Source: a phage. From it: 64,000 nucleotides of DNA. Below the pieces are notes generated by a model that worked only from the letters and a program-made list of their open reading frames with translations, did not search any database and was not told the DNA's origin. The translations under genes were made by a program, and so were the position numbers. The DNA is taken from the NCBI GenBank assembly GCA_012628545.1, contig GCA_012628545.1_3035.1, one strand, 5' to 3'. Below, in pieces: positions 7,307 through 10,061 of this stretch (the first letter of the stretch is position 1; each line of letters opens with the position of its first letter).

Positions 7307-8167
7307 TTACACCGCCATTTTTCCTTTAATTGGCAGATGAGATACATAGTTGTTAAGAACAAAATTATGAGGCTTTGCAAATTGACTCAACCAAAATACC
7401 TGCGATTCTGTGTCCCATTCATCAAATTCATCTGGAAATTTTAATTGTAATTCGCATAAATCCATAGGTTCACGACGTAAAATTTCTTTACATTGTTCTA
7501 CGTGATTCATATAGATATGAGTATTACCACCAGAAAATATCAAATCTCCAGGAATAAGATTACACATTTTAGCTACAATATGAACTAACGTAGCATATGA
7601 TGCAATATTAAATGGAAGACCGAGGAAAACATCTACCGAACGTTGATACCACTGCAAATCTAAATAGCCATTACGCACATTAAACTGATAGAACATATGA
7701 CAAGGCGGTAATGCCATATATTTAAGTTCAGCTGGATTCCACGCAGAAACAATTTGACGCCTATCATTCGGCAGTTTTTTAATACGATCAATAACTTCTA
7801 CAATTTGGTCTACACCGCCAAAATCACGCCATTGTTTTCCATAAATTGGACCAAGTTCACCGCTATGATATCCTAAATCTTTTGCCTGATTTTCGTAATT
7901 TTCATCCCAGACTGTTTTGCCTTGGATTAACGAATCGTGTTGAATTAATCGTAAATCATTGACATTTGTGCTTCCTGATAAAAACCATATTAGCTCAGCA
8001 ATGCATGCATTCCAGGCGAGCTTTTTAGTTGTTACTGCAGGAAAGCCTTTAGTTAAATCCCAACGCAATTTAGTACCGAACAGAGCAATTGTTCCTGTGC
8101 CTGTGCGATCATCGGTTTCATAGCCATTTTCAAAAATGTCTTTAATTAAATCTTGGTATTGTTTCAT
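7307..8167 (-). CDS. td: thymidylate synthase
   Basis: 286 aa; active-site region [11 protein letters not shown] and folate/dUMP binding motifs; uninterrupted (no group I intron). Confidence 0.95.
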
Positions 8168-8212
8168 TTAGTACCTTATATAAATTATAATACATTTTAT
8201 GAAGCTAAATAA

Positions 8213-8560
8213 TCAATACGGTTTAGCATCAAATTTTCTCTCAATTTCAGGTGTGAAATATAATTCTTTACCGCGTTTGGAAAAGCGACCAATAATATGA
8301 TAATTATTCTCATCAAACGTAATATTACCAATATCCATAGCTTTCAACCAAATATCGATATTTCTATCCAGCTTTATGTCAAAATTCCAATACGGAGAAC
8401 TATTACCGAAAATACTGCAAGCGGATTCAGTGAAACAACTGCTATAAATCTTGTCTTTAGGAACTACTAATTGATAGACACCTTTAATAAACTGAGGACC
8501 CTGCCACTTTGGCTGTTTCGCGTCTTTTTCTAATAGAATAGGGTAATAATTAAAATTCAT
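8213..8560 (-). CDS. hypothetical protein, about 115 aa, inserted between frd and td
   Basis: Clean ORF (MNFNYYPILLEKDAKQPKW...) filling a ~410 bp spacer; track ORF 8213..8572 uses a GTG, first ATG is at 8560. Confidence 0.5.
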   Translation of the reverse strand: MNFNYYPILLEKDAKQPKWQGPQFIKGVYQLVVPKDKIYSSCFTESACSIFGNSSPYWNFDIKLDRNIDIWLKAMDIGNITFDENNYHIIGRFSKRGKELYFTPEIERKFDAKPY

Positions 8561-8580
8561 ATTTTCCGCCACGTATTATT

Positions 8581-9407
<827 letters not shown>

Positions 9408-9418
9408 ATTATCTCCTA

Positions 9419-9751
9419 TTAAAAAGGATCAGGAATATATCCGCTAGCTTTAATCATTTTAATTAACGTTAGCATTCCTTTATTAACCGCTAGTGAGATT
9501 TCATCAAAAACTTCATCACTAAAAAGTTCTAACACACCCTTCTGAACTTTTAATTTACAGCCAACAATTTCGTCATCGCCTATAGTAAATTCATTACCAC
9601 CAATTCCTCCGAAAAACTTAATTACACCAGTTAACTGTCTTCCACGAGAATATGGGTCGTGTGATAAAGTAATATGAGTCACCCCGGGTACAGTTTTAAA
9701 TTGGCAGCGAATATTTACTTGTGAAATTCCAGTTACATGAATATCAGACAT
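9419..9751 (-). CDS. hypothetical protein, 110 aa
   Basis: ORF in frd-to-32 spacer. Confidence 0.45.
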   Translation of the reverse strand: MSDIHVTGISQVNIRCQFKTVPGVTHITLSHDPYSRGRQLTGVIKFFGGIGGNEFTIGDDEIVGCKLKVQKGVLELFSDEVFDEISLAVNKGMLTLIKMIKASGYIPDPF

Positions 9752-9761
9752 AATATTTTCC

Positions 9762-10004
9762 TCAAATAGACTTTTTCACAATTTTCCAATCAGCTTTAAA
9801 CTGATCGACGTCAGAGTGATAAATCCAAAATCCTGCGCTTTCTCCGTCTTCATAAAGAGGACATCCATCGCATTCATCTTCCCATCCCATATCACGTAAA
9901 AGATGTTCAGCTTTTTCAATAAGTTCAGAATCTTTACCAATAATATTAAAATACCATTTACCTCTAACTTCTGAATCTTTGATACTCTGACGTTGTAATC
10001 TCAT
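9762..10004 (-). CDS. hypothetical protein, about 80 aa
   Basis: Track ORF 9762..10061 reads through a promoter cassette; start placed at internal Met (MRLQRQSIKD...) downstream of the promoter at 10030..10059. Confidence 0.4.
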   Translation of the reverse strand: MRLQRQSIKDSEVRGKWYFNIIGKDSELIEKAEHLLRDMGWEDECDGCPLYEDGESAGFWIYHSDVDQFKADWKIVKKSI

Positions 10005-10029
10005 TTTATTCTCCTTAGTTGATAAGGCT

Positions 10030-10059
10030 ATAGTATCACTACCATAGCCTGTTGTAAAC
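10030..10059 (-). promoter_or_regulatory. early promoter cassette (sigma70-type)
   Basis: Minus strand GTTTAC, 18 nt spacer, TGGTAGTGATACTAT-type -10; member of the repeated cassette family. Confidence 0.5.
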
Positions 10060-10061
10060 AA

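Follow-up and report, generated by a model that had tools for sequence, protein, structure and literature searches.

The overlap of the phage T4 genes for dihydrofolate reductase (frd) and thymidylate synthase (td) by the four bases ATGA is a textbook case of translational coupling. In the T4 reference sequence (NC_000866), frd occupies 145109..145690 and td runs to 145112; nothing lies between the genes, and the shared ATGA (145109-145112) is as the sequence-only reading described it. The described gene closest to the one considered here is RB32ORF229c (YP_803171) of phage RB32, which carries the GenBank note 'flanked by 9 bp repeat'; it and its Tequatrovirus orthologs in PHROG 1928 are the same gene as the reading frame studied here (ORF-A), at the same position and with the same flanking repeat, and show no difference from it. 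ORF-A is therefore already known as a feature, classed in PHROG 1928 and hypothetical in hundreds of genomes; it does not represent a novel type of element, and databases have listed its product as hypothetical from the RB32 annotation onwards. In the literature searched, no experimental data on its protein and no mention of the ORF were found.

Two mobile systems of T4-like genomes resemble this locus in part. The free-standing homing-endonuclease genes of the seg and mob types share with ORF-A a presence/absence polymorphism at the junction between conserved genes, and ORF-A lies near a homing site; unlike seg and mob genes, ORF-A has no nuclease domain, is orthologous across genera and has native base composition. 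Further, PeSL and PmSL promoter-stem-loop cassettes shuffle ORFs in T4-type genomes (PMC2839356, PMC4122927), and they resemble ORF-A in that small, whole ORFs are gained or lost at short repeats in T4-like genomes. The ORF-A repeat differs from these cassettes: it is a 9-bp stop/start joint, no terminator-like hairpin was found with it, and the promoter-like matches around it do not exceed those in shuffled sequence.

The analysed stretch of phage DNA, called the window, is 64,000 nt long. Its frd, ORF-A and td genes all lie on the minus strand, and its Frd protein is 82-94% identical to the Frd of related phages. The features of the junction, in the direction of transcription, are:

8581..9162, minus strand: frd, dihydrofolate reductase, 193 aa, from the ORF list and annotated as frd in close relatives; stop codon TGA at 8583-8581
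8579..8587, minus strand: left-hand TAAATGAAA copy (9-bp direct repeat), across the frd stop codon
8561..8580, minus strand: 20-nt spacer from the frd stop to the ORF-A start, including a GTG at 8572
8213..8560, minus strand: ORF-A, 115 aa, PHROG 1928, with ATG at 8560 and TGA at 8213-8215; starts MNFNYYPILLEKDAKQPKW
8168..8212, minus strand: 45-nt spacer from the ORF-A stop to the td start, with a Shine-Dalgarno-like AAGG 7-10 nt 5′ of the td ATG
8162..8170, minus strand: right-hand TAAATGAAA copy (9-bp direct repeat), across the td start codon (8167-8165)
7307..8167, minus strand: td, thymidylate synthase, 286 aa, from the ORF list; a single uninterrupted, intronless ORF

The distance between frd and td is therefore 413 nt (8168..8580) and holds one clean ORF, in agreement with the earlier description of a gap of about 410 bp carrying 115 codons, or 119 when read from a GTG. 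That GTG, at 8572, lies in frame upstream and yields the 119-aa version. In the FriedrichZschokke phage, a 1-nt deletion throws the GTG out of frame, and in the nearest outgroup ORF-A begins at the equivalent ATG, where it overlaps the frd stop; together, these two observations make ATG 8560, and hence the 115-aa product, the better start. Within the 20-nt spacer, the stretch GTGGCGGAAAAT resembles, by eye, the last frd codons of the outgroup contigs L015 and L016.

When 50,697 phage records were searched by tblastn, the ORF-A protein turned up in 581 of them, full-length in 580. About 363 records of T-even-type phages, among them T2, RB3, RB5-7, RB9, RB10, RB14 and RB32, have it at 90% identity or more. 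The window's protein equals that of vB_EcoM_Ozark (100% identity), and its identity to the RB32, T2 and RB10 proteins is 96.6-99.2%. Within T4's own genus, the ORF-A allele is the majority state (353-363 of roughly 515-550 records, and 39 of 57 informative rows in an even sample). A second allele, found in about 135 Tequatrovirus records, has a 68-aa ORF (ORF-C, PHROG 9550) joined to each neighbour by an ATGA overlap, while the empty, T4-type junction makes up 5 of the 57 sampled rows and about 4-9% of Tequatrovirus records, being carried by T4 and near-identical strains, G2133, JEP6, FL18 and ECO07P3. Overall, some 30% of the genus, comprising the T4 type and the 68-aa-ORF allele, is without ORF-A. 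The junction comparison proposed earlier, against T4, T2, T6 and the RB phages, thus finds T4 empty, ORF-A present in T2, RB3, RB14 and RB32, and an insert of matching size at the frd-td junction of T6.

Outside the genus, Mosigvirus PHB12 has a 94%-identical ORF-A in the same place. Homologs with 26-66% identity lie directly 3′ of frd in Kanagawa-, Jiaoda-, Gelderland-, Marfa-, Moon-, Winkler- and Kagamiyamavirus, as well as in two metagenomic (Logan) contigs. Identity falls roughly with the divergence of the genera, from 94% in Mosigvirus to 63% in the nearest outgroup contig and 26-43% in the other genera. The gene family is restricted to T4-like phages of Enterobacterales, where it always directly follows frd and precedes td. 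The proposal of a lineage-specific accessory gene accordingly divides in two: ORF-A is accessory, at a variable junction, but it is not lineage-specific, as at least eight other genera carry it.

In six of these genera (Kanagawa-, Marfa-, Moon-, Winkler-, Kagamiyama- and Gelderlandvirus), ORF-A is followed by a second ORF of about 115-125 aa (ORF-B), at these positions:

L003, 2832-3191: ORF-B
L005, 2809-3156: ORF-B
L006, 2790-3143: ORF-B
L007, 2787-3134: ORF-B
L008, 2814-3188: ORF-B
L009, 2814-3185: ORF-B

ORF-B is a paralog of ORF-A (hhalign probability 99.5%, E 1.9e-22), and both match phrog_1928. It shares with ORF-A the family, the motifs QKxW, HG-Y and GRFxKxG and the predicted architecture; it differs by a conserved insertion, some 20 aa long (APTIxxYKRNPxxY), that follows the invariant Trp, and ORF-B is absent from the window. 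An independent AlphaFold model of ORF-B (pLDDT 90.4) has the same order of elements as that of ORF-A, with a short predicted helix added in the insertion. The third gene of the slot, the 68-aa ORF-C (PHROG 9550), occurs in other genera and belongs to the same family as the alternative allele of Tequatrovirus, which is exemplified by two phages:

L011, 1002-1208, minus strand: ORF-C allele of phage ACG-C40 (MSNKLKVKDVPNAMALF...), unrelated to ORF-A, with ATGA and TAATGA overlaps
L012, 1304-1510, minus strand: ORF-C allele of phage fPS-2, with ATGA and TAATGA overlaps on its two sides

The ACG-C40 annotation covers a mere 42-aa piece of the 68-aa ORF. In the closest outgroup contig, A, B and C are all present, with overlapping stops and starts, and such overlaps between slot genes are usual in most other genera. 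The order frd-A-(B)-(C)-td holds in nine genera including T4's own, and all 19 of the 19 IMG/VR loci retrieved by the family pattern show it. The most economical account is that an ancestor carried frd-A-B-C-td and that its descendants lost different genes. Local alignments of the window's 45-nt spacer to ORF-B and ORF-C score no higher than those of shuffled sequences, giving no significant remnant of either, and no paralog of ORF-A was found elsewhere in the 64,000-nt window.

The genes flanking the junction are the same in the window and in T4, and in-silico removal of the 417 bp between the TAAATGAAA copies produces the T4 junction, identical at 73 of 73 nt and with its ATGA overlap restored. 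What distinguishes the two is that T4 is without ORF-A, whereas td in the window has a spacer and Shine-Dalgarno-like sequence of its own in place of the overlap. Because ORF-A is the majority state in the genus and lies directly downstream of frd in other genera, loss in T4 is the parsimonious polarity: we infer that ORF-A is ancestral and that the T4 arrangement is derived, by deletion at a short repeat formed from a stop/start joint. The description of ORF-A as an extra ORF inserted between frd and td is consequently reversed. In mechanistic terms, the A-rich, ATGA-type joints of the slot genes could serve as microhomology for whole-gene deletions that restore an overlap each time. One feature of the window could point the other way. 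The left repeat resembles the start of td at 13 of 14 bases (AAATGAAATAATAC at 8573-8586 against AAATGAAACAATAC at 8156-8169), as compared with 11 of 14 in most relatives, and this td-like left stretch, which resembles the first 12 nt of td, is missing from the outgroups; ORF-A could instead have been re-inserted into, or joined to, a T4-type junction in the ancestor of the genus. The same 14 nt of the window (8573-8586) encode a tiny Met-Lys-stop frame overlapping the frd stop.

The td gene of T4 is split by a 1-kb group I intron with I-TevI, which is absent from the window's td. All T4-type junctions examined lie on td genes with the I-TevI intron, which suggests that the ORF-less junction may hitch-hike with intron homing. 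A strict association of ORF-A with an intronless td is rejected, since RB6, PST and ESCO58 carry ORF-A together with the intron, and the relatives include every one of the four possible pairings of intron and ORF-A presence or absence. Separately, the td spans of ESh30 (a Shigella phage, H176) and 235Ecol030PP (H203) are about 300 bp longer than an intronless gene and about 700 bp shorter than one with the full intron, a size that suggests td introns without the endonuclease ORF.

On the other side of frd, the window also contains two small genes that T4 does not have, both between frd.1 (DUF5417, 9762-10061) and frd:

9162-9407, minus strand: 81-aa phrog_3183 gene, whose stop overlaps the frd start
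9419-9751, minus strand: 110-aa DUF7247 gene

As the gap between frd.1 and frd is only 72 nt in T4, the T4 frd neighbourhood is pared down on both sides.

ORF-A is probably co-transcribed with frd, as judged from the DNA itself, since there is no terminator-like site between the two; nor does any terminator-like hairpin adjoin ORF-A. The 45-nt spacer before td contains a single sigma-70-like match (TTGATT-18-TATTAT, 9 of 12 positions). Across the region, 8 promoter-like sites were observed and 10.7 were expected from shuffles, so that a td promoter within the spacer is unsupported. An AGCTT resembles a Mot box, but its spacing is wrong for a T4 middle promoter. No Rfam match in the region rose above noise, and an RNA element was rejected. 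In Mosigvirus PHB12 (L018 1860-1876), the spacer from ORF-A to td is 15 nt, compared with 45 nt in the window (8168-8212). The usual Tequatrovirus spacer has about 30 more nt than that of PHB12 (TTAGCTTCATAAAATGTATTATAATT...), which are promoter-like in look, the promoter itself being unsupported.

At the protein level, ORF-A matches the phrog_1928 profile with an E value of 9.5e-36, its residues 8-115 aligning to positions 2-125 of 126. Pfam (E ≤ 1), NCBIfam, PADLOC and PDB sequences gave no match to the single sequence or the profile, and no sequence or structural likeness was found to any characterised member of the known defence and anti-defence proteins. Exhaustive scanning of 1.84 billion representative proteins with HMMER yielded 17 clusters at E ≤ 1e-3. 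Single-domain proteins of 99-116 aa make up 16 of these; the weakest match, P0019 (838 aa), is a TPR repeat protein and was set aside as spurious. Moreover, a profile search of a 5.8-billion-protein set returned unnamed proteins only, and the long contigs among its hits are T4-like, at 159-178 kb. Neither the HMMER nor the profile search turned up a domain fusion of the family.

The family alignment contains six invariant residues (Q16, W19, G27, G91, K95 and G97) and five near-invariant ones (L9, Y29, R92, F93 and F102); the conserved motifs are L-L-x-x-D-x-x-Q-x-K-W towards the N-terminus and I-G-R-F-x-K-x-G-x-x-x-Y-F-x-P towards the C-terminus. No Asp, Glu, His, Cys, Ser or Tyr is invariant. 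AlphaFold2 predicts a mostly beta protein with one helix (pLDDT 90.9, pTM 0.84), with strands at 6-12, 27-34, 38-40, 48-50, 62-64, 80-82, 86-96 and 99-104 and the helix at 68-76. By the order of these elements, the conserved K15, Q16, K18 and W19 would sit in the loop after strand 1, and the conserved G91, R92, F93, K95 and G97 in the penultimate strand and its following turn. Foldseek against the PDB returned nothing below an E value of 0.3, and against BFVD it returned uncharacterised proteins only, the named ones coming from T4-like phages. Among the weak structural matches, OB-fold proteins recur, none of them significant, and the ORF-A model has extra strands.

The substitution pattern identifies ORF-A as a genuine protein-coding gene under purifying selection that matches or exceeds that on frd and td. 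In particular, the window and T2 differ in ORF-A at 12 synonymous and 0 non-synonymous positions, and the window and PHB12 at 32 synonymous and 9 non-synonymous positions, for a dN/dS of 0.04; between these two phages the ratio is 0.23 in frd and 0.08 in td. For ORF-A, the ratio is about 0.1 against a metagenome relative of 66% identity and lies between 0 and 0.1 across many pairs. This pattern refutes the idea that ORF-A is a non-functional reading frame, arisen by chance or decaying in an intergenic spacer; such an origin is barely conceivable when 580 of 581 records are intact, homologs of 26-66% identity retain the ORF-A motifs and the AlphaFold fold is confident, even though the T2 record (LC348380) leaves ORF-A unannotated and other records name it implausibly. 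The sequence-only reading had asked whether the ORF occurs in T4 or is disrupted and unconserved in close relatives; it is absent from T4, and conserved and intact in the relatives. Annotation of the gene is inconsistent across MZ501067, MZ501065, MZ501089, MN580668, OR125554, OK272476 and LC348380, and the labels 'putative glucose-1-phosphate adenylyltransferase' and a second 'dihydrofolate reductase' have no Pfam or NCBIfam match behind them. A further label, 'putative homing endonuclease' in the BASEL collection, belongs with a group of observations that would suit a mobile insertion, whether a free-standing homing-endonuclease gene or its relic, or a cassette recently put into a T4-type junction: close relatives differ in presence and absence at one junction, a 9-bp direct repeat flanks ORF-A, the left copy of that repeat mimics the td start, and the I-TevI homing site is about 600 bp away. 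At 115 aa, ORF-A is small for a homing endonuclease, which counts against such an origin. The earlier statement that it has no homing-endonuclease motifs was confirmed, with no GIY-YIG, HNH, LAGLIDADG or other Pfam match at E ≤ 1, and the family has no invariant residue of a catalytic type. Homing genes are sporadic, their distribution independent of phylogeny, whereas ORF-A has orthologs at the same position in nine genera with 26-94% identity; the presence/absence polymorphism within the genus fits, on its own, sporadic loss. Its dS between the window and PHB12 is 0.83, above that of frd (0.47) and below that of td (1.96), which argues against a recent horizontal arrival, and its composition is native (32.8% GC, compared with 35.3% for the window). 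A homing endonuclease is thus largely refuted by the lack of motifs and the orthologous synteny across genera, and a mobile insertion of any kind is very improbable.

As to what the protein does, the explanation that we modestly favour is a conserved ancestral gene that T4 has lost, conditionally dispensable and encoding a putative non-catalytic binding protein. Action by stoichiometric binding rather than catalysis is most likely, to judge from the residues, since no acidic residue, His, Cys or Ser is invariant. That roughly 30% of the genus lives without ORF-A, together with the tight constraint wherever it is kept, points to conditional dispensability and shapes the ranking of candidate roles, for which distribution, constraint and residue conservation are the guides. 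Placed highest, and still tentative, is a binder in host interaction or counter-defence, acting as an inhibitor or sponge; its very low within-genus diversity, unusual for arms-race genes, speaks against this role. An accessory partner of the dihydrofolate reductase/thymidylate synthase machinery is less probable, and a nucleic-acid-binding regulator somewhat less probable again. As an alternative to the favoured explanation in its entirety, ORF-A could be a subunit or regulator of the thymidylate cycle that binds dihydrofolate reductase, thymidylate synthase or both, or the dNTP-synthesising complex, with translational coupling fixing the proportion of its product to the enzymes. In every case ORF-A lies between frd and td, stop codons overlap start codons there in most genera, selection on it is no weaker than that on the two enzymes, and its composition is native, all of which would agree with such a partnership. 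This alternative is nevertheless doubtful: T4 and the phages with the 68-aa ORF are viable without ORF-A, the overlaps are broken in the window by spacers of 20 nt and 45 nt, and gene order is conserved throughout T4-like genomes as a rule, so that adjacency to these two genes says little about a functional link. A different possibility, which draws on the predicted structure and is unlikely, is an OB-fold binder of single-stranded nucleic acid that would target mRNA or DNA of the phage, for instance as an accessory factor in translation or replication. ORF-A is small and predicted to be beta-rich with one helix, as are the OB folds of SSB, RPA, S1 and HIN, and has conserved aromatic and basic residues, and the Q/W loop and GRFxKxG hairpin would match the usual OB binding loops, which is a lead and not a result; its model has extra strands, no structural match to those folds is significant, and no sequence relationship to them was found. 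A further reading of low probability is that PHROG 1928 represents a new fold, a small binder with a role in thymidylate/folate metabolism or in evasion of host defence, in which the A/B pair and the 68-aa ORF are interchangeable modules. If that were true, the A/B pair and the 68-aa ORF would serve one host-dependent function, and the family would have been hidden from the T4 model system because T4 deleted ORF-A.

Returning to the favoured explanation, a conserved gene lost by T4, its meaning lies in the standing of T4 as the reference for the whole phage group, where the ATGA overlap of frd and td is nonetheless a rare and, by the parsimonious polarity, derived allele. Most relatives have between these two enzymes a tightly constrained small gene without a structural relative among solved proteins, and the interest of ORF-A lies in its strong conservation, its lack of a structural match and its absence from the model phage.
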